A stretch of DNA of 20,000 nt from an uncultured virus (IMG/VR IMGVR_UViG_3300008120_000036) (Duplodnaviria > Heunggongvirae > Uroviricota > Caudoviricetes): the IMG/VR virus record IMGVR_UViG_3300008120_000036; one strand, 5' to 3'. Positions 4,023-20,000 of the stretch are shown here, piece by piece. The translations under genes and the position numbers were made by a program. The first letter of the stretch is position 1. Every line of letters starts with the position of its first letter. The notes under the pieces are model-generated. The model made no database searches, had not been told where the DNA came from, and saw only the letters and a list, made by a program, of their open reading frames with translations.

Positions 4023-6716
4023 TTATTTACTTTCTATTAGAGATTTGAATGCGCCAGCACCATCTAACTTTGCCAGCACACCATTGAGTTTTTTATCTTT
4101 TAGATATGTCTTTCCACCAGTAACAGCGCGTGGGTCACATTTTGTAATCAAGTCTGCAATGGAATCGTATGGAGCATTTGATGCAATTGAATCTGCTGCG
4201 GATACTCCAACACCCTTGATTGAAACTAGACCACGCCTAATCGCTTTGTATTTACGGTCAAGTGTCCATGATGCTCCACTAATGTTTACATCAGGTGGCA
4301 ATATGCGTATTCCCATTCTTCGGGCTTCTCTCACATATAACGCTTCCTTATCTGAACCAGCCCATGACTGCAATAACGCTGTCATAAACTCCAGTGGATA
4401 GTGTGCTTTCAAATATGCACACCGATATGAACGCAATCCATAACCAGTAGCATGAGCACGATTGAATCCGTATGAAACGAATCCTGCTGTTGAATCCCAT
4501 GCTTTCTGAATATCTTTACTAGCAATACCAGCACTTAAACAGAGTTCACCAAATTCTTTACGAACTTTTAGTAAACGCTTTTCATTTGCATCAACTGCTC
4601 CTGCACCCGAAGATTTAACAATCTTGAAGAATATATTTACGCCATCAATACCCATTCCAAGACCTCTCATAATATTGATAACTTGTTCTTGGAATATAAC
4701 TGCGCCATAAGTATCCTTCAACGCTTTTTCAAATGCATCATGGATATATTTCACTCTTGCACGCGCATCAGGATTTCTACGGCGTTCAAGATATAACTCA
4801 GTTTGTCCAGTGTTCATTGCACCTGGCATAAAGAGTCCAGTTGCTAACACTGCATCCTTTGTTGTTTTAATTCCCATGCTTTTTCCACCTTTGGCTTTTG
4901 TATAACCTTCAAAATGGAATATGCCATTATCAGTTCTGCCCTCTCTAAGAATCTTGCACGCTGCTGCATCATCTTCAGGAATCCAAGAAAAGTCTGTTGG
5001 GTTTTCTCTCCCAATCATGGCTTGGCAATTACGCATTACTGTTAATGTTGTTTGACCTAAGATATCCAGTTTTAGATATCCCAACTTCTCCACATCATCC
5101 ATATCAAATTGACTTACTTCAGTATTAGAAGATGCAACGAGCATTTTTGGTACATAGGATTCAATCTTTTGTTCACTGCCACTAATCAAGACACCACCAG
5201 CATGAACACCATATGAGCGCAATACACCACCCATTTCTGCAATGCGAACTAATCCTTTGTAATCTTTTGGATTAAGTTTTTTCACATCCTCAATGGTTTG
5301 AATATTGGCATACATCTTGGCGCGTTCATCTTTGTCGGTGACTTGCTTACTTAGATAAGACTTGTAAGAAACCATGACAGAGCCTTTACCATCTTCACGC
5401 GAACCTAACTTTGCCCATGTGCCGATACGAAGAGTGTCAAATGTTCTTTCAAGATATCCCACTAATCGTTCACGCGATATATCTTCAATATCCATATCAA
5501 TATCAGGCGGTGTAACTCTGTCGCGTGATAAGAAACGGTCAAATAACAATCCCCATCTAACAGGGTCAACCTGAGTAATACCTAGCAAGTAGCAGACTAG
5601 TGAACCATTCGCTGAACCACGCGCTTCAATACATATCTGCTTTTCATTACACCACTGCACATAGTTATAGACGAGCATAAAATAGCCAGCCATTCCTAAG
5701 TCGCGGATGATATCTAATTCATATGAAAGGCGTTCTTCATATTGATTACGATTACGAACTTGCATATCGGCGAGCGCATCAAGACATAACTGCTCAACTT
5801 CTTTTTGTGGATTCTTTACCAATGCAGGAATTTGAGCCTTGTACTTATCTAATGCAGGTATGGATAACTTATTTAGATTTAATAAATGTAATGCGCCTTC
5901 TTCTGCACGATTCCATACTGCATCTTCATAATGGTCTGCAACCCACTCAGTTGTCGCAACATGAAATGAATCTCCTGGAAATTCATCCTCTGCACCACCA
6001 TAAACCATACGCTTCATCAATGCATGAGCGTGTTTATCTGATTCATGTAAGTAATGGCTATCTTGCGTAACCATAATCGGCAGACCTGTTGTATCCGCAA
6101 TTGATACTAGAGCATTCACAATGTCATCATCAGTTTGTGGATGCGCTTCATTATCTTGGTCATGACATATTGAGTGATTCTGTATTTCTACGAATGTGTG
6201 TGGAAACCATTTGGCATACATCTTTACGAGATTTTCTGCCTTCTTGATTCCATCAGTAACTAAACCTTGTTGCACTAGACCGAAATAGCAACCAGTAAGG
6301 AGTGCTATGTCATCACCTGCCAAATCAGATAATTCTGCTAAGTCAGTTAATTGCAACCTAGGGAATCGGTTAAACCTCGGTCTAGTGTGGCTTGTACTTA
6401 CGGCTTTAATCAACGCTTGATATCCATTGAAGTTAAGAGCGTGTAATCCAACATGGTAACGCTTTGCATTCTTATCTTCTAGATTTGCGCGTGGGTCAAG
6501 AATGTATGCCTCCACACCAGTAAACGGAACTATCCCATGCTTCTTTGCATTTAGATATAACTGCACTGCACTTGCCATATTGCCATGTTCAGTTAATCCG
6601 AGTGCTGGCTGTCCTTCCTTGGCAACTTTTTCAACCATATCTGCAACAGGTGACATTCCATCTAGCACTGAGAATGCTGAGTGTGTATGTGCTGACCACC
6701 AATTTGATTTCTTCAT
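4023..6716 (-). CDS. dnaE: DNA polymerase III alpha subunit (phage DnaE)
   Basis: PHP motifs HTHS-x-FS-x-LDG, TEHGNM, DSHY; RGSA, FDRFL, PDIDMD, HAGGV, KLDILG, FQEQV, YGFNRAHA, YLKAHYP; HhH GLVSIKGVG. Confidence 0.96.
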   Translation of the reverse strand: MKKSNWWSAHTHSAFSVLDGMSPVADMVEKVAKEGQPALGLTEHGNMASAVQLYLNAKKHGIVPFTGVEAYILDPRANLEDKNAKRYHVGLHALNFNGYQALIKAVSTSHTRPRFNRFPRLQLTDLAELSDLAGDDIALLTGCYFGLVQQGLVTDGIKKAENLVKMYAKWFPHTFVEIQNHSICHDQDNEAHPQTDDDIVNALVSIADTTGLPIMVTQDSHYLHESDKHAHALMKRMVYGGAEDEFPGDSFHVATTEWVADHYEDAVWNRAEEGALHLLNLNKLSIPALDKYKAQIPALVKNPQKEVEQLCLDALADMQVRNRNQYEERLSYELDIIRDLGMAGYFMLVYNYVQWCNEKQICIEARGSANGSLVCYLLGITQVDPVRWGLLFDRFLSRDRVTPPDIDMDIEDISRERLVGYLERTFDTLRIGTWAKLGSREDGKGSVMVSYKSYLSKQVTDKDERAKMYANIQTIEDVKKLNPKDYKGLVRIAEMGGVLRSYGVHAGGVLISGSEQKIESYVPKMLVASSNTEVSQFDMDDVEKLGYLKLDILGQTTLTVMRNCQAMIGRENPTDFSWIPEDDAAACKILREGRTDNGIFHFEGYTKAKGGKSMGIKTTKDAVLATGLFMPGAMNTGQTELYLERRRNPDARARVKYIHDAFEKALKDTYGAVIFQEQVINIMRGLGMGIDGVNIFFKIVKSSGAGAVDANEKRLLKVRKEFGELCLSAGIASKDIQKAWDSTAGFVSYGFNRAHATGYGLRSYRCAYLKAHYPLEFMTALLQSWAGSDKEALYVREARRMGIRILPPDVNISGASWTLDRKYKAIRRGLVSIKGVGVSAADSIASNAPYDSIADLITKCDPRAVTGGKTYLKDKKLNGVLAKLDGAGAFKSLIESK

Positions 6717-7153
6717 TTCACCACCTCATCTTCTTCATAAGGTCTTTGTACTGCACCAACATAATCGGCAACACTATCAACCTTCCTACCTTCTTTCCAA
6801 GTAAATGGAGTGCTCTGTCCTTCAGGCAATATCCATAAGTGATATTGATTAGCACCATCAACTAGTGAACTTTCAGGAGGAAAGATTTCTAAACCTTCTC
6901 TTTCCGCACCTGCTAATTCATTTTTGATTCTTTGAAAGTGTCGCCAATCTCTAATTGCTTTCCTGTCATTACGGCGAATTGATAACCATAATGCGCCAGT
7001 GAGTCCAACATCAGGTTGCAGTACTTTGAGTAACACATGAAACAATCCATTTGCATAAAGTGTTTCATTTTCATCAAGTGGCTGTTCTTCACCAGTTACG
7101 GAGTTGAACGCCTCTTTTGTTTCAGTCCACTTTGTCCATTGTGGGTTTGGCAT
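6713..7153 (-). CDS. Conserved hypothetical phage protein
   Basis: WLSIRR-x-D...DWRHFQRIKNEL...E-x-FP-x-ES-x-LVD-x-ANQYHLW, a pattern I recall from phage proteins; strong RBS AAGGAGG. Confidence 0.8.
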   Translation of the reverse strand: MPNPQWTKWTETKEAFNSVTGEEQPLDENETLYANGLFHVLLKVLQPDVGLTGALWLSIRRNDRKAIRDWRHFQRIKNELAGAEREGLEIFPPESSLVDGANQYHLWILPEGQSTPFTWKEGRKVDSVADYVGAVQRPYEEDEVVK

Positions 7154-7179
7154 ATATAACCTCCTTGGTTATTTGTTGA

Positions 7180-8040
7180 TTATGGTTTTGTATATGAAAC
7201 GGTGCATCCAAGATTCCTGCTTGTCTGCGTTCCTCCGTTATATGTGTATTCAGTTCTGCATAATGCATCACCCGAAATACTTTCAACAACATAGTTCCAA
7301 CTCTTACCGCCGACACATCCTGCATCAGCATCACCTACACCACCTGCAACTACTCCACCATCTGTAGGACAAGCACTACCTCTTGCACTTGGTGCTGTTA
7401 TCTGTGGCGCAATAACTTGTGGCACAAAAACAGGCTCAGGTGTCGGTGTTGGAGTAGGTGTCGGTGTAGGCGTTGGGGTCGGTTCAGGGGTCGGGGTACT
7501 GGTCGGGGCAGGGGTTGGGCTAGATTCAGCCTGCCCATTTAAGGGGCTGGNNNNNNNNNNNNNNNNNNNNNNNNNNNNNNNNNNNNNNNNNNNNNNNNNN
7601 NNNNNNNNNNNNNNNNNNNNNNNNNNNNNNNNNNNNGGGCTATTAGACGGACTTTCAGGGGTGGGGGTAGGTGTAGGGGTGGGGTCAAGCGTGGGGCTAG
7701 GGGTCGCTGTAGGGGTAGGGGTAGGGGTCGGTTCAGTCTGAGTACTTGCAGTTGAAGTATCTGATTCAGTCACGCTAGTTGAAGTATCACTCAGTGATGC
7801 TGTCACTGTACTTGTATCTGATGTTGTGAGTAGCGTTGAAGTTTGACTTTCAAATATCAATACGCGGTCTTCAACAAATGGTTCTTCCTCTAACATTGTT
7901 TCTTCAACTGGAATTGGTTCACCAAAAATATCTGTGTCAGCAAATATTCCTGTTGAGTACATGATGATTGATTGTGCTGGTGTTGGCGCGATAAATAAAA
8001 GTACTACAAACGCTAACACGAATTTAACTTTTCGTTTCAT
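7180..8040 (-). CDS. Secreted/surface Ser-Thr-Pro-rich protein with PT repeats and a small Cys-containing C-terminal domain
   Basis: Signal peptide MKRKVKFVLAFVVLLFIAPTPAQS; GGAG RBS before ATG 8040; frame across the N gap (7551-7636) unverified. Confidence 0.7.
   Translation of the reverse strand: MKRKVKFVLAFVVLLFIAPTPAQSIIMYSTGIFADTDIFGEPIPVEETMLEEEPFVEDRVLIFESQTSTLLTTSDTSTVTASLSDTSTSVTESDTSTASTQTEPTPTPTPTATPSPTLDPTPTPTPTPESPSNSXXXXXXXXXXXXXXXXXXXXXXXXXXXXXXSPLNGQAESSPTPAPTSTPTPEPTPTPTPTPTPTPTPEPVFVPQVIAPQITAPSARGSACPTDGGVVAGGVGDADAGCVGGKSWNYVVESISGDALCRTEYTYNGGTQTSRNLGCTVSYTKP
7434..7740 (-). repeat. Pro-Thr coding tandem repeats flanking an assembly gap
   Basis: Degenerate 6-nt repeats (ggggta/ggtgtc) on both sides of an 86-N gap. 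Confidence 0.8.
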
Positions 8041-8149
8041 TATTATCTCCATCTTCTTGTGGGTCTTGTGATTCTTCATATATCTTTATTAAGTCATCAA
8101 GCATTGGCTTAGGTGTTTCAAATGGCAATTCATCTTGTATCACCATCAT
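8024..8149 (-). CDS. Small acidic hypothetical protein (41 aa, not in ORF track)
   Basis: ATG overlaps the upstream TGA; MMVIQDELPFETPKPMLDDLIKIYEESQDPQEDGDNNETKS. Confidence 0.5.
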   Translation of the reverse strand: MMVIQDELPFETPKPMLDDLIKIYEESQDPQEDGDNNETKS

Positions 8150-8367
8150 GATGCACGCACCGAGCATTCAAGGCAGGTATATCCGTAAAGATTGTTTGCA
8201 TACAACTGTACGAACATATCTGTTCTGTTATAGAGGTATCCGCATTCATGACAGAACTTTTGATTATGATTCTGTAAATAGGAAGTTATTTGCGAGCGCG
8301 AAAGTGAATCTACATGAACACGCTTTTTTGTTTTGATTACATTCCATATATTAATTTCTTCATCCAT
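8146..8367 (-). CDS. Small zinc-finger-like protein
   Basis: CHEC...CLEC; AAGGAG RBS. Confidence 0.7.
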   Translation of the reverse strand: MDEEINIWNVIKTKKRVHVDSLSRSQITSYLQNHNQKFCHECGYLYNRTDMFVQLYANNLYGYTCLECSVRAS

Positions 8368-8402
8368 GATTGCTCCTTAATTTATATTTATGTTATTAAA
8401 GT

Positions 8403-8454
8403 GAACAGTTCCGCACTAGACCAAGGAGGTGTATTTACTAGTACGGAACTGCTC
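8403..8454 (-). ncRNA. 17-bp hairpin with an anti-Shine-Dalgarno loop (candidate antisense sRNA domain)
   Basis: GAGCAGUUCCGUACUAG / CUAGUGCGGAACUGUUC; both non-WC pairs are G-U on the minus strand; loop UAAAUACACCUCCUUGGU. Confidence 0.6.
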
Positions 8455-8459
8455 TATAT

Positions 8460-8688
8460 ACCGTGTTCGCAGTTGGCGGTAAAACCCAACTAAGAAGTGA
8501 CACAGCCCCAATACTCCATATCGTCTTTTTTACTATATGAACAGGAAGGGATTGAACCATCCACATAGCAATGGAGTAGTTGTGTCCTGCGAAGTGATGA
8601 ATGACTACTGGCTACAACACAATGGGGTTTGTGGAGCGAACTTGTAGTCCTCACCACACTTAACCTAACCATGACGGATAGTTAGGTG
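8460..8688 (-). ncRNA. Candidate multi-helix structured RNA with a T-loop and possible pseudoknot
   Basis: Nested helices found by eye (see findings); no credible ORF. Confidence 0.55.
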
Positions 8689-8690
8689 TC

Positions 8691-9734
8691 CTAGAACGGT
8701 GCTTCCTCTTCATCCTCTTCGTCAACAGATGCCACATCAAGAATCATTTCAATAATGTCATCTTTAGATGCGCCAGCCTTAACTTTGAGTTCATAGTCAG
8801 CAGCGATTTCTTTGATTTCTTTCATAGACATTTTGCGTAGTTCGTCTTCATCAAGGACAACAGTTTCATACTCGCCATCCTCAGAATCAGAATCGTCTTC
8901 CTCAGACTCATCATCCTCATCATCATCAGAACTACTACCAGTTGCAAGCACCTCGTCATCCTCATCATCATCTTCAGCATCACCGAGAATCAGATTGATA
9001 AGGTCATCACTATCTAGACCTTTTGTTGTATGACCAAGTTCGCGTGCAATAACTTTCAGTTCAGCGAGTGACTTCTCTTCCAAGTCATCACGGCTGTATT
9101 CTGCATCAGAATCAGAGTCGTCATCCTCGTCTTCGTCTTCGTCATCATCCACTTTTGATTTTGGTGTTGACTTAATTGACTTACGAGCCACTGGCTTTTC
9201 GTCTTCCTCGTCTTCGTCATCATCATCAGAATTGACTGGCACATCTTCCAATTGAGATTCTAGTAATCCCATAAGGTCTAGCAAGTCATAGCGTTCCAAG
9301 TTCATCTTGGTTGGAGGTTCAGGTGTTACATCATATTCAGTATCAAGTCCTGCTCCTGAACGCGATAATTCATAATCACGGTCTAGCAAGGTTGCATACT
9401 TGTCATACTTCTTTAACAGAGATGCAGCAACAGACTTTGGCATTACTAATGGAACAACCCTGCTTTCCGCAACATCTAATGCGTTAGCGAGATATCTTGC
9501 AGCAGGTCTTTCTTGTGTTTGCACGCCCTCTACAGAGGGAAAGAAACGCTTTTGTTCTGCATCATAATATTCAAAGTAAGCAATCCATTCAGTTGGTTCA
9601 GTAAGAAAACGAACGGTCAGTGAGCCGTCAGATGGAATTCTTGTTAGATAACTTCCACTGCCACCGCCTTTCTTTACAGATGACCTTAGTGAATTAATGC
9701 TTGTTACTTTTCCACCTCGGATTTGTTTTGGCAC
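8691..9734 (-). CDS. Probable single-stranded DNA-binding protein (gp32-like) with an acidic C-terminal half
   Basis: LTVRFL and G-x-GLDTEYDV motifs typical of phage SSBs; two Rho-N-like helical repeats; acidic tail ending EEAPF. Confidence 0.72.
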   Translation of the reverse strand: MPKQIRGGKVTSINSLRSSVKKGGGSGSYLTRIPSDGSLTVRFLTEPTEWIAYFEYYDAEQKRFFPSVEGVQTQERPAARYLANALDVAESRVVPLVMPKSVAASLLKKYDKYATLLDRDYELSRSGAGLDTEYDVTPEPPTKMNLERYDLLDLMGLLESQLEDVPVNSDDDDEDEEDEKPVARKSIKSTPKSKVDDDEDEDEDDDSDSDAEYSRDDLEEKSLAELKVIARELGHTTKGLDSDDLINLILGDAEDDDEDDEVLATGSSSDDDEDDESEEDDSDSEDGEYETVVLDEDELRKMSMKEIKEIAADYELKVKAGASKDDIIEMILDVASVDEEDEEEAPF

Positions 9735-9824
9735 GATTAACCACCTTCTTGTTGATATAGCATTAAGGGATTTCCTTAATTACTAGATGAGAACTCATAG
9801 TTTGAATTTCACCTTGGTGTTATT

Positions 9825-9853
9825 AACCTATTACATGATTTTTTAAGGTGCAA
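9825..9853 (-). promoter_or_regulatory. Putative promoter TTGCAC-N17-TAGGTT
   Basis: Same CTTGCACC -35 context as the promoter at 19964-19992; lies just downstream of a terminator. Confidence 0.5.
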
Positions 9854-9868
9854 GTTCCTTTACATATC

Positions 9869-9927
9869 TGCATAGGTGTAATTATTAATTTGCATAGGTG
9901 CATATTTAATTTATTTATGCACTGGTG
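9869..9927. repeat. Direct repeats TGCATAGGTG x2 plus TGCACTGGTG in AT-rich DNA
   Basis: Copies at 9869-9878, 9891-9900 and 9918-9927. Confidence 0.6.
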
Positions 9928-9935
9928 AATAAATG

Positions 9936-9981
9936 AAAAAGTGACAGTAATGTTTGTCGCGGAAACACTACTGCCACTCTT
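9936..9981 (-). terminator. Intrinsic terminator
   Basis: AGUGGCAGUAGUGUUU-CCGCGAC-AAACAUUACUGUCACU followed by a U-run, just after the stop at 9997. Confidence 0.75.
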
Positions 9982-9996
9982 CCCTATATTCAGTTT

Positions 9997-10596
9997 TTAA
10001 TTATCCACCTTGTAATCAGATGGATACTTTTTGAGCCACTTGTAAAACGCAGGCTCGTTTACTCCGCCATTGTACGCCTCAGAACCAATATCCCAAGACG
10101 ACCAATCACTTCCCCCATTTGTCATGTGGAAAACAATCTCGGCGTTAGTTACTGGGTCAAACAATTGCTTATTTGAATCCAGTCCGAATTTGGCTCGCCT
10201 ATCTTCACCTAATGTTCCAATCATGTTGATTTGGAATATGCCATAGGAGTTATCTCCAGTGTTTATATTGTCATTATGTGCCAATGGGCGACCATTTGAT
10301 TCACGCTTTACAACTGCCCATGCAGTCTTCAGAGATTTACCCTGAAAACCTACCGAATGTAGTAAATCTACCAATTCAGTATCAGTGAGTTGTTCTTTAG
10401 CGTTACGGAATTCTGCGACTGTAGGTTTATCTGTTGCAAACAGATAGTTAACTGTTTTAGCAGGTAACTCTACGGTGAACTCCTTAATCGTTGGTGCTTC
10501 TGCTCTCGCAACCGTACCAACGCTTGTTGCTAGTACTGTGACTAGCGAATAGGTGACAACTATGGCTTTTGTCAACCTTTGGGGATTACTTAACAT
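9997..10596 (-). CDS. Secreted lysozyme-like / lytic transglycosylase (SLT-type) protein
   Basis: N-terminal signal peptide (ARA cleavage), AWAVVKRES (catalytic Glu), DNSYGIFQIN, LFDPVTNA, W-x2-W. Confidence 0.82.
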   Translation of the reverse strand: MLSNPQRLTKAIVVTYSLVTVLATSVGTVARAEAPTIKEFTVELPAKTVNYLFATDKPTVAEFRNAKEQLTDTELVDLLHSVGFQGKSLKTAWAVVKRESNGRPLAHNDNINTGDNSYGIFQINMIGTLGEDRRAKFGLDSNKQLFDPVTNAEIVFHMTNGGSDWSSWDIGSEAYNGGVNEPAFYKWLKKYPSDYKVDN

Positions 10597-10607
10597 CAGT
10601 GCTCCTT

Positions 10608-10835
10608 CTAGGGTTCAAGTGAGTTGTCACAGTCAGGGTTATTGCAACCATAACTAAAACAACGCACACAGCGTTCGTTGCTCCTTTCTTCTTCTAGTAG
10701 GGATACGCAGGCTTGAATGTGTTTTATGTCGGTGAAGAGCCGACCATCCTTTGCTTTCCGTATCGGTAACTGCTTCTTGCACAGTGGACAAGAAACACTT
10801 CTTAGACTCAATGTATTAGAGCCTGCATTTATCAT
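10608..10835 (-). CDS. Small Cys-rich (zinc-binding) protein
   Basis: CPLC, H-x3-C, CVRC-x4-C-x4-C; AGGAGG RBS. Confidence 0.7.
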   Translation of the reverse strand: MINAGSNTLSLRSVSCPLCKKQLPIRKAKDGRLFTDIKHIQACVSLLEEERSNERCVRCFSYGCNNPDCDNSLEP

Positions 10836-15088: not shown

Positions 15089-15739
15089 TTATTGTTCTAG
15101 TAGATGGGCGATATAACTTAGTGGCAAAAATACTGCCGTACCTTGCAAGTAGCAATTGTGGAATCTAGTTCCCACCTTTGGCTCACTTGTAAGTTTTACT
15201 TTTAATCTTTTGTTACCTACACCTGTAACGATATAAGTAACGCCAGTCATGTACTTAGGATTAACGGTATAAGGCATTGCAAACTCCTTACCCTTGAATG
15301 CATCCTTTGGATAGTACTTACCCCGATAGACAAAATGATTAGTGTCACTTGTCAACAGAGATGCAGATACTGGTTGCACTTTGTTATCTGCGGTAGGCAC
15401 TGGCGAATTGTTAGCCGATACATTGCCAGCAGGCTCATCACTAGCGAAAGGTGCATTAGGGTCATAGAACCCTTTCTTCTTTGGCGTGAATTGAGGTGGT
15501 GTCTGTTTAGTACCGCCCTGTGGTAATTGCATTGGAGTTGGTGTTGGTGCTTTTGGTGGATTACCCAATAGCACATCACGCCTATTAAATAGTGCGCGAC
15601 CAATCTCCTTGATATATGAATCTAGATATCCTTTATCAAGAACATCAATAATCCACTGACTGAATTCAGTGGCATCCATAGTTAGCAGAGCATCATTCAA
15701 TGCTTGACTAGTACTGAATGGTTGTTGTGTCTGTGTCAT
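15089..15739 (-). CDS. Hypothetical protein
   Basis: 216-aa ORF, AAGGGAG RBS, Pro-rich linker. Confidence 0.8.
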   Translation of the reverse strand: MTQTQQPFSTSQALNDALLTMDATEFSQWIIDVLDKGYLDSYIKEIGRALFNRRDVLLGNPPKAPTPTPMQLPQGGTKQTPPQFTPKKKGFYDPNAPFASDEPAGNVSANNSPVPTADNKVQPVSASLLTSDTNHFVYRGKYYPKDAFKGKEFAMPYTVNPKYMTGVTYIVTGVGNKRLKVKLTSEPKVGTRFHNCYLQGTAVFLPLSYIAHLLEQ

Positions 15740-15753
15740 TTTTACACTCCCTT

Positions 15754-17679
15754 CTAGTGTTCTGTGAATGACAAGTTAGCAATGACTCGCGCTAAGTCAA
15801 CTAACTGGCGTGTATCGTAGATGCGCTTTGCGAATTGGCAATTGTGCCTTTTGTGTTCAGGCAAATCTTCTGCCTCATCATTAAGGTTTTGTGAATAGTG
15901 TGGATAGTCAAGAAATGCCAGTGCTGTAAGTACACCTGCATTATTCATTGACTGAATCAATTCATCATTACCTTCAACACCGTAATCACCATCCCACTCA
16001 CCATCAGTAACGAAGAAGCAAATCTTGTTACCGCGCTGTGTGGCATCAAACACTTTGAGTGCTTGACGGATTGCATTGTTGGGCTGTGTGTTGTTATCTG
16101 AACCGAATACACGGAACTTAGATGAATCAGCCAAATCATCTTTGTCATATAGCAAGTGAGTAGAATCATTGAATGCAAGAACAGTTACATTTGCATTGAT
16201 TGACTCTAGTGCAGACTTGATAACCCACATTGCCTTAGATGCTTCATGCATTCTGTAAGACATAGATGAACTGATATCAAGAAGAATCACTGCCTCAACT
16301 TCAGTACTGTCAATTTGACCTTCGCGGAATGAGTCAAAGATTTCAGTGAAATCATCCCCACGCATTGCACGGTCAATATTTACACGACCTGCTGAGTTAC
16401 GCGATTCCCAATATGGGTCAGCATCAGTACGCAACTTTTTCAACTCGTAAGCAAATTCATCTACTAACAAGTTGTCTTCTGTATCAACTGGATGCTCAAC
16501 ATAACGGCGACTACTTAGATTGATAGTGACTTCACCATCACCAGCAGTAATAGCCTCCTGCTTGTTCTTTGCATCAGCAATAACATCAGCAGACTGCATA
16601 ACCTTATCTTTGATAACACTAAGAAGTTTCATAACCTCTTCATAGTTATCAGGTAGGTCAGTAGATACATCAGTATCGCCACCACTAACACCACCGTCAG
16701 ATGGAGCAGAAGAATCTGAATCTGAATCATCTTCATCTGAATCATCCGCATCAGAACCAGCACCACCTTCTGAATCAGACTCTTCATCAGCATCTTCATC
16801 AGTATCAGCATTGCCACTTCCGTTACCTTCTACAGAATCATCAGCATCAGACTCTTCATCAGTGTCTGTATCTGAATCATCATCAAGGTCTTCTGCATCA
16901 CGCTCTTCCAACTCCTCATCAAGATAGTCAACAGCATCTTGTGTATCTTGCTGCTCGCCAACTGGCGCAGAACTACCTACAGATATGAGTGGTCGTTGAC
17001 CACAGATATGACCAAATGGGTCTTTTGGCTTAACTAGATTTGTAGTTAAGAGGATGCGGTGGAATTTTTCCACTAACACAATTGCACGGTCATTATCAGT
17101 TGGGAAAACTAACTTACGATACTCGTCAATTATTTTCTCAATCTGCTTGACATACTTTTGGTGTGCAAACTGTCTGCGGAACTCATTACGCATTGCAATC
17201 GGCAAGTAACGGCGACCATGCATGATAATGAAATTAGCCTTCCAATCTTCAGGGCTATTTGTACAGTAACGAGTAAAAGTAGCAATGAAGTAAGGAATAG
17301 TCGCAGGATAGATAGCAGTAAGCATGGACTCAATACGCTGGTCTTCCAAGATATTGAATGCATCATTCCATCCATTAGCCAAGACCTCAGTAACAATCTT
17401 GGTGTTCTTGCGAGGTGTGTACAAGACATGACTCAACTCATGATAGTTGAACCCAGTGACTTGCACGATATCTTCAATCGTACCGATATTGTAAATACGG
17501 CTCGCATTGAATGTAATGTGGCGACCATCAGACCATGCTGGTGCAGAGTTGTAATGGTCATCAACCACTGAACAAGATACTTCTTCCGCACTAAGAATTC
17601 TGTTAGCGCGTGCAAAGACACGACTCATTGCTTCAAGTCGTGCAATGTGTTCATCACTTGACGGCATTAATGTAGTCAT
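15754..17679 (-). CDS. VWA (MIDAS) domain protein with N-terminal HExxH domain and acidic linker (CobT-like)
   Basis: HELSH, NILEDQRIE, D/E/S-rich linker, LLDISSSM (DxSxS), NNTQP, VTDG. Confidence 0.88.
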   Translation of the reverse strand: MTTLMPSSDEHIARLEAMSRVFARANRILSAEEVSCSVVDDHYNSAPAWSDGRHITFNASRIYNIGTIEDIVQVTGFNYHELSHVLYTPRKNTKIVTEVLANGWNDAFNILEDQRIESMLTAIYPATIPYFIATFTRYCTNSPEDWKANFIIMHGRRYLPIAMRNEFRRQFAHQKYVKQIEKIIDEYRKLVFPTDNDRAIVLVEKFHRILLTTNLVKPKDPFGHICGQRPLISVGSSAPVGEQQDTQDAVDYLDEELEERDAEDLDDDSDTDTDEESDADDSVEGNGSGNADTDEDADEESDSEGGAGSDADDSDEDDSDSDSSAPSDGGVSGGDTDVSTDLPDNYEEVMKLLSVIKDKVMQSADVIADAKNKQEAITAGDGEVTINLSSRRYVEHPVDTEDNLLVDEFAYELKKLRTDADPYWESRNSAGRVNIDRAMRGDDFTEIFDSFREGQIDSTEVEAVILLDISSSMSYRMHEASKAMWVIKSALESINANVTVLAFNDSTHLLYDKDDLADSSKFRVFGSDNNTQPNNAIRQALKVFDATQRGNKICFFVTDGEWDGDYGVEGNDELIQSMNNAGVLTALAFLDYPHYSQNLNDEAEDLPEHKRHNCQFAKRIYDTRQLVDLARVIANLSFTEH

Positions 17680-17691
17680 GTGCTTACCTCC

Positions 17692-18717
17692 TTATTTCTC
17701 TTCTTCGTAGAACCAGTCAACGCCTTGCTCACCAAGTTCGGAAAGGTCTGCATCTGCATCAACCTCTACGACTTCGTATTCGTCATCAACTGATGATTTT
17801 GATTTCTTTGTAGATGCCTTCTTAGGCTTGTTAACCAACTCTGTTTCAATGTTGACTAACCATGTATCGCAAACAACCTTAACTGCACCGCGTTCACGGC
17901 GAGCATTGAAGTGATTGACAAAAGACATAATTGCTGAATTGATACCAAGTTCTTTGGTAATCTCTTCAAACTCCATCAACATATTTGTACTAAGTGGAGT
18001 CTTGATTGTGCCTTTACCAATTTCTTCACGAATCTGACCTGCCATATCAAGCAACGACTTAGAAGTAATAAGTTGTGCCTCAATAACTGGGTCATAGTCA
18101 TACTGCAATTGAACAGCGAAGCGATTACGCAGTGCTTTGTTGAGGTCACGCGTTCCTTCATAGTTAGGATTTTGTGTAGCGATAACAATGAAGTTATCGG
18201 GTGCAATGATGACCTCTGATTTGTGGTCGGTCAATGTAATAGAACGGCGTTTATCTAAGATTTCGTGAATCTCAAATAACTGGCGTTCAGATGCTGAATT
18301 TAATTCGTCAAGGATAACTAAGCCTCCATGACGGACAACATCAGTAAGAGCACCATCTTGCCAAGCAAAGTGACCATCCTCAGTAGGAATCATCTTGCCA
18401 AACAATGTGGACTTTTCAGTACCGACTGAAAATGAAATAACAATGGCTGGAATACCTCTTGATTCTGCCCAAGCCAATGCACCAGTTGTTTTACCACAAC
18501 CAGTAGGAGATTCAATTAGAACATTACGCTTGTTACGCAATGCGTAATCAAACCACTCAAAGTCTAACTTCTCGCCGACTTTGCGATTGATGTACTTGTC
18601 TTCATAGCCACTAGGTACACTGGCTATCTCATTCTTATAGGTTGATTTACCCACTTTGTTTTTCCCTTCAGTAGTTGTTGACTTACTGCGCTTTACTTTG
18701 TACTGGACTTTACTCAC
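17692..18717 (-). CDS. MoxR/CbbQ-like AAA+ ATPase
   Basis: SPTGCGKT, WQDGAL, ILDELN, IATQNP, ALRNRF; GTG 18717 follows AAGGAGG. Confidence 0.9.
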   Translation of the reverse strand: MSKVQYKVKRSKSTTTEGKNKVGKSTYKNEIASVPSGYEDKYINRKVGEKLDFEWFDYALRNKRNVLIESPTGCGKTTGALAWAESRGIPAIVISFSVGTEKSTLFGKMIPTEDGHFAWQDGALTDVVRHGGLVILDELNSASERQLFEIHEILDKRRSITLTDHKSEVIIAPDNFIVIATQNPNYEGTRDLNKALRNRFAVQLQYDYDPVIEAQLITSKSLLDMAGQIREEIGKGTIKTPLSTNMLMEFEEITKELGINSAIMSFVNHFNARRERGAVKVVCDTWLVNIETELVNKPKKASTKKSKSSVDDEYEVVEVDADADLSELGEQGVDWFYEEEK

Positions 18718-19031
18718 TTGTTTACCTCCTTGGTAGTGATGCATTCAAACTGGATTGAAACTTCACCAGTCTTTTCATTTATTAATTCCATGCCACCGTT
18801 GAATACTTCAATGGCACGATATGCTCTATCAATTTCATTCTGCTTCTTGGCAGCATGAAGATTGTCTATTAGAACATTTGCTTGCTCATGTGTTACACAA
18901 ACTGGTTGATAGTTAGGTGTATTAGGAAAGAGCCAACTTAGTAACACGATTATTAAGATTGCAGGAAAGAATGTAAATACAAACTTACCTCTTGGGGTTA
19001 ACACTGACCAAAAGTTTTCTAAGCGATTCAC
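18714..19031 (-). CDS. Hypothetical membrane protein
   Basis: LTPRG followed by a hydrophobic helix; coupled to both neighbours. Confidence 0.75.
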   Translation of the reverse strand: MNRLENFWSVLTPRGKFVFTFFPAILIIVLLSWLFPNTPNYQPVCVTHEQANVLIDNLHAAKKQNEIDRAYRAIEVFNGGMELINEKTGEVSIQFECITTKEVNK

Positions 19032-19171
19032 TTATTGCTCCCTTCTAGTAGTTTCCAATCAGATACGAATTCAGCATTATCAAGAAAATCTCTTGTTTGC
19101 TTGATTGCATCTTCGTATGATTCAGCCTCTCCAGTGAATGTGACTTCAACTGTTATGTCGTATTGCGCCAT
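19028..19171 (-). CDS. Small hypothetical protein (47 aa, not in ORF track)
   Basis: AAGGAGG RBS; MAQYDITVEVTFTGEAESYEDAIKQ...; TGA overlaps the next GTG. Confidence 0.7.
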   Translation of the reverse strand: MAQYDITVEVTFTGEAESYEDAIKQTRDFLDNAEFVSDWKLLEGSNK

Positions 19172-19200
19172 GATTACCTCCTTGGTAATTGGTGTTTGGT

Positions 19201-19257
19201 CTAAACACCATAGAAGGACATAGACCTCATAAATCTATGTCCAACTAAAGAATTTAG
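19201..19257 (-). promoter_or_regulatory. Long imperfect hairpin in the leader (possible processing or stability element)
   Basis: GGACAUAGAUUU-AUG-AGGUCUAUGUCC (19216-19242), extendable by CUAAAU/GUUUAG. Confidence 0.55.
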
Positions 19258-19299
19258 AATTCTTGCTAGGTACATTCTCCGCAATGCTTGTCAACTTAG

Positions 19300-19957
19300 T
19301 ATTTGGTTATCTGTGAGTTCTACTAACTAATCCATATCTATTAGGTGACTACACTCGCTTCGTCTGCTACCTACAGTTTGTGTTATACGCTCCGCTTAGA
19401 ACATTTCGTTACAACCTTGGCAGAATTATCGGCTCGCACCGACCAAGTGATTGTTGGTTTGTATAGACTCGCTGTAAGCAACTGCTTGTGCTAGATATGC
19501 TTTCCTCACCCTTAGCAAACTTTGGGTTGGTAGTTCATTGAGTACTTGGTTTTGTGCCGACTGAATCGGTCTTGCTGTAACTCCACACCAAGTCGCATGG
19601 ACTGTTACAGGCTCAACAGTTGGGGTACTTGACTACGCTCTCGGTCTTTCCCTCAGCCCCAGTTCCCAAATGTCACTCCGTCTGTCACTACGGTTTGGTT
19701 ATCGCACCCTAATCGGTTATGGTCGTTTTTCGCTCCTAGATGCCTGTTGTGTAGAAGGCTATCGGTCTGAATCACACTCGCAAGTGAATCCGCATTCACA
19801 AGTAACAAACTTGATGTAGTCGGATTGTTCTGACTCTTAGGCAGTAACCGCGTTGGGCTGTTGAACTGCTGTTCTTTCACTCTATGTAGTTGTCAATGTC
19901 TTGCCTCGTATGCGACCCTAGCCTTTGCTCCCCTGTCGGGGGGGGCTAACCGTGCAT
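19300..19957 (-). ncRNA. Candidate large structured non-coding RNA (boundaries approximate)
   Basis: Downstream of a good promoter; many nested and long-range helices with G-U pairs favouring the minus strand; no credible ORF. Confidence 0.6.
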
Positions 19958-19963
19958 GGGTCA

Positions 19964-19992
19964 ATTATGCCTTATATATACATATGGTGCAA
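19964..19992 (-). promoter_or_regulatory. Housekeeping-sigma promoter TTGCAC-N17-CATAAT
   Basis: -35 at 19987-19992, -10 at 19964-19969, 17-bp spacer. Confidence 0.7.
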
Positions 19993-20000
19993 GCATCTTC

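Follow-up and report, generated by a model that had tools for sequence, protein, structure and literature searches.

What is the role of a long hairpin that lies behind the SSB gene of an uncultured phage and whose loop resembles the 3' tail of 16S ribosomal RNA (rRNA)? The hairpin occupies positions 8403-8454 of a 20,000-nucleotide (nt) stretch of DNA, hereafter the window, from an uncultured virus of the Caudoviricetes (IMG/VR record IMGVR_UViG_3300008120_000036). All convincing genes of the window are on the minus strand and make up a phage replication and early-gene module, and the hairpin lies in a non-coding stretch (8368-8690, minus strand) between the stop codon of the SSB gene and the start of the next gene, which encodes a 73-amino acid (aa) protein (p73). 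The initial annotation, made from the letters alone, had proposed a trans-acting RNA that is made from a second (SSB) promoter and silences a defined set of phage ribosome-binding sites (RBSs) through its loop. The best reading of the analyses described below, which we put forward tentatively, is that the hairpin caps an RNA derived from the tail of the SSB message and that its loop doubles as an antisense element against RBSs.

A minus-strand hairpin carries the complement of three phage RBSs

The two arms of the hairpin (8403-8419 and 8438-8454) are 17 nt each, are complementary at 15 of 17 positions and are separated by an 18-nt spacer. Read on the minus strand, the 5' arm (8454-8438), the loop (8437-8420) and the 3' arm (8419-8403) form a 17-bp stem in which both non-Watson-Crick positions are G.U pairs; the same positions are A.C on the plus strand, and arms and sequence thus agree with the strand-specific stem described in the initial annotation. 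Folded as minus-strand RNA, the hairpin reached -30.4 kcal/mol (z -5.68), which was equalled by 0 of 200 shuffles. The loop reads UAAAUACACCUCCUUGGU and includes the 11-mer ACCUCCUUGGU (8420-8430, minus strand). Its ACC and GGU triplets were mutually paired in about 95% of the predicted ensemble (unpaired probability about 0.05), forming a 3-bp helix within the loop that makes UCCUU an apical pentaloop beside a 7-nt bulge, UAAAUAC. Pentaloop and bulge are unpaired and the ACC:GGU helix closes weakly, leaving a complementary segment exposed, as is expected of an antisense element against RBSs. The features of an intrinsic (Rho-independent) terminator were not found: the loop has 18 nt, the tail ACUUUAAUAAC has only 3 consecutive U, and the hairpin was not among the 4 terminator-like sites obtained by a terminator scan of 7000-10700.

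The loop 11-mer ACCUCCUUGGU is the exact complement of ACCAAGGAGGU. When the window was searched for ACCAAGGAGGT with up to 1 mismatch allowed, 4 matches were obtained, all of them exact, against a mean of 0.24 in 200 shuffles, none of which reached 4. The plus-strand copy at 8420-8430 is the hairpin loop itself, and all three minus-strand copies are located 5-6 nt ahead of start codons. The copy at 19176-19186 precedes the ATG at 19171 of a 45-aa open reading frame (ORF), which is the first gene to follow a long non-coding region; the copy at 18724-18734 precedes the GTG at 18717 of a MoxR-type AAA ATPase gene; and the copy at 7159-7169 precedes the ATG at 7153 of a gene encoding a DUF7694 protein, whose stop codon overlaps the DnaE start. 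The near-identical IMG/VR record G001 (44.66 kb) contains the same four 11-mer copies and no others. Partial matches were found as CCAAGGAG before 15070 and as AAGGAGGT before 17679 and 13687. On the minus strand of the 20 kb AAGGAGGT occurs 5 times, and its single plus-strand copy is the loop.

Duplex energies were computed for the exact loop with eight starts. The three target RBSs gave -19.7 to -19.8 kcal/mol and the next-best start -14.6 kcal/mol, with the partial-match sites at -13.6 to -14.6 kcal/mol. The RBS of SSB itself gave -12.7 kcal/mol with an internal mismatch, and that of the adjacent p73 gene -10.1 kcal/mol. The median over 30 starts was -9.7, in a ranking that used a loop string one base off.

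Within the loop, CACCUCCUU (8432-8424, minus strand) reproduces 9 of the 12 nt conserved in the 16S 3' tail, GAUCACCUCCUU(U/A), as given in the accessible part of PMC6847405; the 16S rRNA of the host may differ. The loop can form 11 of 11 Watson-Crick pairs with each of the three RBSs, and the 16S tail 8. An ACC prefix was found at 3 of the 5 AAGGAGGT sites and is uncommon in the RBSs of the phage, with C at -3 in 9 of 44 and at -4 in 12 of 44 aligned RBSs. Since ACC cannot be paired by the conserved GAUCACCUCCUU(U/A), a partner with ...CCUCCUUGGU is called for, and the loop is such a partner. The host 16S tail was considered as the origin of the prefix and was ruled out by the RBS profile together with the conserved tail (PMC6847405, partial text). 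The exact matches at 19171, 18717 and 7153, the partial matches at the three further genes, the extension past the Shine-Dalgarno (SD) core and the likeness to the 16S end had all been announced in the initial annotation, and each was recovered here.

The hairpin ends a structured non-coding stretch

The stretch of about 320 nt between SSB and p73 (8368-8690), which is part of the SSB 3' untranslated region (UTR) and a candidate stable RNA, folds on the minus strand into about five stem-loops, the last of which is the hairpin. The minus strand of 8340-8700 reached -116.2 kcal/mol (z -5.11; 0 of 100 shuffles), whereas the plus strand reached -89.0 kcal/mol (z -0.74; 25 of 100 shuffles), which is not significant. 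A 277-nt core gave -97.8 kcal/mol (z -5.34), with G.U accounting for 16 of 90 predicted pairs. With DNA folding parameters the strand bias was much weaker (z -2.99 for the minus strand vs -1.68). Among all 200-nt windows taken in 100-nt steps over the whole window, the stretch had the lowest minus-strand energy (-71.1, vs a mean of -46.2 with an sd of 9.0). Such minus-strand-specific structure is as expected of an RNA.

The first stem-loop (8663-8687, minus strand) has 10 bp and a 5-nt loop and follows immediately 3' of the SSB stop codon. A long and irregular second stem-loop is predicted at 8594-8657, a long third one with an 11-nt A-rich bulge at 8509-8582 and a fourth at 8460-8506, all on the minus strand. 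The third contains a T-loop-like sequence, GGUUCAAUCC, at 8548-8557. A transfer RNA (tRNA) or tmRNA-like reading of GGUUCAAUCC was rejected: ARAGORN finds none, and no complementary acceptor strand was seen by eye. A Y RNA acting with a Ro60-like protein was likewise discarded, the 641-aa vWA protein of the window being without a TROVE domain. A 13-nt complement of 8591-8603 near base 1440 of G001 falls within a coding frame and appears to be fortuitous.

No match at gathering score was obtained in the window with all 4227 Rfam families, including C4 antisense RNA, RsaE, Y RNA-like and tmRNA, and a search of 8100-10100 gave none for 8368-8690 even at E up to 10. The only ORF in the stretch (8490-8672, 60 aa) was rejected as a gene, leaderless translation included: it has no SD and no PHROG or Pfam match, and no homologue was found among proteins of 33-105 aa. 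The stretch is therefore a candidate new structured RNA family, so far of a single sequence.

The stretch is present in RNA libraries of freshwater-type studies

A search of sequencing runs returned 20 rows from 17 studies containing the stretch or part of it, and the runs that contain it are labelled freshwater, lake or river. The rows include 14 DNA runs (X1-X14) and six RNA runs (X15-X20), the latter containing only 12-17% of the words of 8100-9100; X18-X20, at 12-14%, are not counted as evidence here. Three RNA runs from three studies (X15, X16 and X17) and one DNA run (X13) were mapped as contigs on 7900-9300. The contig of X15 (8411-8647, 237 nt) includes the loop and the stem except its last 8 nt; that of X16 spans 8445-8650 (206 nt) and that of X17 8461-8670 (210 nt), and all three have 0 differences from the window. 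Each lies wholly within the non-coding stretch, and jointly they cover 8411-8670. The stretch is thus present in RNA libraries of three freshwater-type studies.

The X17 contig continues into 21 nt that abut 8461 and that we take to be an Illumina adapter; with a usual stranded library, 8461 would presumably be the 3' end of a minus-strand RNA. This fragment end lies next to the fourth stem-loop, in the single-stranded linker GG/UAUAUA, 6 nt before the hairpin stem. The three RNA runs gave no phage-like cover on the SSB and p73 flanks (7900-8410 and 8671-9300), where missing cover is not evidence; other pieces on these flanks are acidic-repeat look-alikes with 3-6 differences over 31-42 nt. 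The DNA run gave sparse cover without variant letters.

Hairpins behind SSB and before DnaE in related phages

Nothing similar to the window or the stretch, near or distant, was found among GenBank phages, and IMG/VR scans with SSB, p299 (the 299-aa protein), p73 and DnaE returned, beyond G001, only relatives of at most 56% DnaE identity. An RNA homologue was not found in metagenome contigs, where one scan was swamped by an acidic peptide pattern and the other gave one weak match. Two low-GC lineages (32-34% GC; SSB 40-43%, UvsX 52-53%) carry, as here, a hairpin with a long stem and a large loop immediately behind the SSB stop codon. An anti-SD loop, the conservation of which in homologous hairpins the initial annotation had made a test of its proposal, is absent from the same-position hairpins of these only other lineages found; the sequences are unrelated, and homology of the hairpins is not clear.

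In one of these lineages, G003, the hairpin behind SSB (L025, 5398-5480) reached -22.7 kcal/mol (z -4.35). Over 18 nt its interior is exactly complementary to the region of the first start codon of an 84-aa ORF (L093, 711-965) located 29 kb away. The duplex of these 18 nt, a small gap and six more pairs was computed at -33.7 kcal/mol, and an 8-nt unpaired run, AUAUCCAU, faces AUGGAUAU. The 57-kb record contains only 2 distant inverted matches of at least 18 nt, and this pairing is one of them. The 84-aa ORF matches phrog_26427, is hydrophobic-looking, has no SD and is the first gene after a promoter-like gap. Behind it comes a 64-aa ORF whose C-terminal part includes a hydrophobic segment, and the two ORFs may be a lysis cassette. 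In the other lineage, G002/G014, the hairpin behind SSB is a plain U-tract terminator with a 19-nt loop. G002 and G003 are 73% identical around SSB, and the 84-aa gene is present in G002 at 69% identity. A loop aimed at a start is thus found in 2 of 3 low-GC lineages, namely this phage and G003, and in G002/G014 not.

G003 (sense 40754 and 43681) and G002 (15789 and 18740) also share a 23-nt exact inverted pair about 2.9 kb apart and of near-same sequence, which may mark the ends of an insert or reflect RNA pairing over a long range. The GC-rich relatives (G004-G009, 57-64% GC) have clusters of long hairpins in the gap of 300-450 nt just before DnaE, for example at L010 6669-6990, L005 4545-4996 and L011 6599-6998. 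Several of their loops are C-rich, such as UCCCCC and GCCCCCAC. The gaps bear no sequence likeness to the stretch of the window, and in G004-G009 none of the loops matched a start site convincingly.

A proposed antisense role for the SSB-message tail and its alternatives

In the favored reading, a cap hairpin that doubles as an antisense loop, the hairpin would be the last stem-loop of a folded non-coding RNA of about 290-320 nt forming the tail of the SSB message. The 17-bp stem would cap the RNA end and shield it from exonucleases, by which the SSB tail may survive as an RNA of its own. The apex of the hairpin would display a CU-rich copy of the ribosomal anti-SD tail lengthened by GGU, which could make 11 consecutive Watson-Crick pairs with ACCAAGGAGGU of genes 19171, 18717 and 7153, three more than 16S rRNA. 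Accumulating SSB-tail RNA would then compete with 30S subunits at the three RBSs and lower their translation. What the data show is the fold with its strand bias, the exact and rare complementarity, the lack of coding signal and the occurrence of the stretch in RNA libraries; a stable minus-strand RNA, its pairing in cells, repression and, if there is any, timing are inferred. The strand-specific fold, the best loop match to the three RBSs, the ACC prefix left unexplained by 16S pairing, the RNA-library contigs and the parallel hairpin of G003 speak in part for the trans-acting silencer of the initial annotation. Its origin at an SSB promoter found no support: a promoter scan detected no sigma-70-like promoter on the minus strand in 8368-8700. 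Pairing between two loops is not indicated either.

The missing promoter also weighs against the antisense role itself, as do several other points. ACC and GGU are predicted to be paired, such that 5 of 11 nt (UCCUU) are free unless 3 bp are opened. Distant inverted 11-mers are common as such (243 in a 45-kb composite), and the three target genes share no evident common logic. Among the RNA contigs, 2 of 3 end before the loop, at 8445 and 8461, and X15 alone covers it; the adapter junction at 8461 could mean that a stable species ends just upstream of the hairpin. Strand, ends and abundance of the RNA cannot be read from contigs, DNA may be present in RNA libraries, and the RNA runs were found using this same stretch. 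The only near relative, G001, is identical at the hairpin and the RBSs and so carries no co-variation information, and the other relatives, at about 40-56% protein identity, showed no RNA homology by blastn and nhmmer in the fetched relative loci. The loop of the G002/G014 hairpin is without a complement in its own records; given the closeness of G002 to G003, the pairing seen in G003 is therefore not conserved between close relatives.

The hairpin could instead be an ordinary mRNA processing or stability hairpin whose anti-SD loop has no function in trans, which we consider possible but not probable. It would guard the 3' end of the SSB message or, after a cut in the UAUAUA linker at 8460/8461, the 5' end of a p73-p299-DUF7694-DnaE message, and its loop may be what remains of an inverted piece of an RBS or may have converged by chance on a CU-rich sequence. 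Such a role is consistent with the other long intergenic hairpins of the phage (9936-9982, 11491-11533, 11619-11667 and 19200-19258), with the hairpins that relatives carry after SSB and before DnaE, with the large loop without a target in the same-place hairpin of G002/G014, with the library fragment end at 8461, 6 nt before the stem, and with the frequency of inverted 11-mers genome-wide. It does not account, however, for an exact complement that is found only at three RBSs and lies in the loop of the strongest local hairpin, far from chance, for the loop being the sole plus-strand AAGGAGGT in 20 kb, or for complementarity that goes past the SD core and fits an unusual ACC prefix unpairable by 16S rRNA. 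A role in cis is unlikely. Here the loop would pair with the SD of p73 about 50 nt downstream (CUCCUUGG with UUAAGGAG) and mask that RBS in a pseudoknot-like fold, or would pair with the SD of SSB itself, as in icaR mRNA (PMC3868564, partial text), which provides the precedent in a 3' UTR. The p73 SD is located on the same transcript, about 35 nt downstream of the hairpin, and can form a 9-pair loop duplex of -10.1 kcal/mol, while the SSB leader gives -12.7. Both duplexes are nevertheless much weaker than those of the three distant RBSs (-19.7 to -19.8), the SSB site ranked 7th of 30 starts and p73 fell outside the best 10 (with the loop string one base off), and the extra GGU of the loop is without a partner in either leader.

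The likeness to the 16S tail raises the question of a global effect, in which abundant CACCUCCUU RNA would titrate strong SDs and shut off the host, or would act as a decoy for a protein that recognizes or cuts the 16S tail. The identity of 9 loop nt to the conserved GAUCACCUCCUU(U/A), the pairing of the loop with other strong phage SDs (-13.6 to -14.6 kcal/mol) and the occurrence of the stretch in RNA libraries of three studies fit this account, which is nonetheless quite unlikely: the GGU extension points to three specific sites and not to SDs in general, part of the mimic is hidden by the ACC:GGU pairing, and nothing points to a protein partner. Very improbable, finally, is an element that works as DNA, in which the inverted repeat would be bound by a protein or would belong to an origin of replication located between the SSB and polymerase genes. 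The location within the replication module is suitable, and folding as single-stranded DNA still gave z -2.99 for the minus strand. Against it, both mismatches are G.U only in minus-strand RNA, the strand asymmetry is much larger under RNA parameters, the stretch is present in RNA libraries, and neither iterons nor AT-rich unwinding repeats adjoin it.

Taking this phage and G003 together, the SSB-message tail of this freshwater phage group could be a re-targetable antisense device, a loop aimed in each lineage at different starts, although we regard this as doubtful. Here the loop would be a GGU-extended mimic of the 16S tail; in G003 it would be antisense, over 18+6 nt, to the start codon of a small gene of membrane type. 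Were it true, the abundant SSB transcript would also be a timer, turning off selected genes in the course of replication, and in a bolder version the 16S-tail mimic would also titrate SD sites of the host. A replication-protein message with a built-in antisense loop that out-pairs the ribosome at selected starts would time gene expression in a simple and portable way and would offer itself as a natural blueprint for programmable translational repressors. Little is charted of RNA-based regulation in lytic phages, and for uncultured freshwater phages genetics is lacking altogether. Whatever its function, the 320-nt stretch may be a new structured RNA; it has no Rfam family and occurs in RNA libraries of several freshwater studies.

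Genes and other features of the window

The SSB gene (8691-9734, minus strand) encodes a 347-aa protein with an acidic tail ending in APF. Residues ~274-333 form a Rho_N-like domain (Pfam PF07498, E 2e-7), also matched by an 'endonuclease VII' PHROG and flanked by a long acidic stretch and by the acidic C-terminal tail. The p73 gene (8146-8367, minus strand) encodes a protein with CxxC motifs, and its SD, UUAAGGAGC, lies about 35 nt past the hairpin. The DUF7694 protein (6713-7153) and the DnaE-type polymerase (4023-6716) are encoded further downstream on the same strand. The module also includes genes for a Cas4-like nuclease, a resolvase, a UvsX-like recombinase, a DNA methyltransferase, a lysozyme-like protein, a NADAR protein, a pyrimidine-dimer glycosylase, a sigma-70 region-4 protein, the vWA protein and the MoxR-type AAA ATPase.

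Record G001, rated 52% complete, is 99.8-100% identical to the window except for four length differences, in which 7551-7636, 9888-10000, 15597-15893 and 17800-17920 of the window are missing. The second takes out a terminator-like 20-bp hairpin (9936-9982) upstream of SSB, and natural variants therefore differ in this hairpin. The region of about 800 nt upstream of gene 19171 (19190-20000, minus strand) is without a convincing ORF, the only one being a 75-aa GTG ORF at 19653-19880. It gave no Rfam match, and the fold of 19190-19990 was not significant (z -1.6 for the minus and -0.3 for the plus strand). Just before the RBS of 19171, a 25-nt imperfect hairpin (19200-19258) overlaps a 7-bp alternative hairpin.

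The motif ACACCTA occurs in 7 copies in the window, all on the minus strand, vs 2.1 expected, and 0 of 200 shuffles reached 7. The copies include 8683-8689, 8110-8116 and 9873-9879 and four more, and three of them fall between genes, one immediately behind the SSB stop codon and the others ahead of the 299-aa gene and of SSB. The hairpin loop carries a near-variant, ACACCTC, and CACCTATGCA is repeated at 9869-9878 and 9891-9900. ACACCTA could be a phage promoter or operator motif.

Comparison with known systems

Hairpins that are processed by RNases and protect phage mRNAs, such as those at the RNase III sites of T7, and small RNAs (sRNAs) derived from 3' UTRs offer one point of comparison. 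In common with the T7 type, the hairpin studied here would be a stable structured end behind a highly expressed gene, and its long stem could serve processing or protection. To our knowledge, hairpins of this type do not have loops that copy the 16S tail, and processing is hinted at here only by the one adapter junction at 8461.

In Firmicutes, sRNAs with C-rich loops, such as the hairpins of RNAIII and RsaE/RoxS, use UCCC or CCUCC-like loops to bind the G-rich SDs of several mRNAs, and the 3'-terminal hairpin of RNAIII takes part in SD binding. These sRNAs are bacterial, independently transcribed and have cores of 4-6 nt, often on several loops, whereas here a single loop with an 11-nt perfect match lies in a phage 3' UTR without an Rfam match. 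The c4 RNA is a small phage RNA cut from a longer transcript, the loops of which pair with the RBS region of phage genes. The likeness is that of a phage RNA whose loop would pair with RBS regions to block expression. The c4 RNA has two loops and one downstream operon as its target, in contrast to the single anti-SD loop and three dispersed targets here, in a lytic-looking freshwater phage and with no Rfam match. Its antisense role in phages P1 and P7 (Rfam family C4) is described in the accessible part of PMC8198154. In the literature searched for it, no phage RNA with a loop mimicking the 16S tail or an anti-SD was described.

In icaR mRNA of Staphylococcus aureus, an anti-SD motif in the 3' UTR, UCCCCUG, pairs with the SD and blocks initiation (PMC3868564, partial text). 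The hairpin shares with it a C/U-rich anti-SD motif in a long 3' UTR that can pair with an SD region. As far as the available text goes, icaR targets the SD of its own mRNA, whereas the own SD of SSB is a poor partner here (-12.7) and the exact matches are located 1.2 to 10.8 kb away; the phage motif, moreover, is carried by the loop on a 17-bp stem and duplicates 9 nt of the 16S tail. Best pairing with the own SD, which would mark an icaR-type element, was not found, the SSB leader giving -12.7 vs -19.7 to -19.8 for three other genes. With its own SD not the best partner and no Rfam match, the hairpin belongs to none of the icaR, c4 and C-rich-loop sRNA families. From what is available of the icaR work, the closest working likeness is the anti-SD motif of the icaR 3' UTR, here aimed at other genes.

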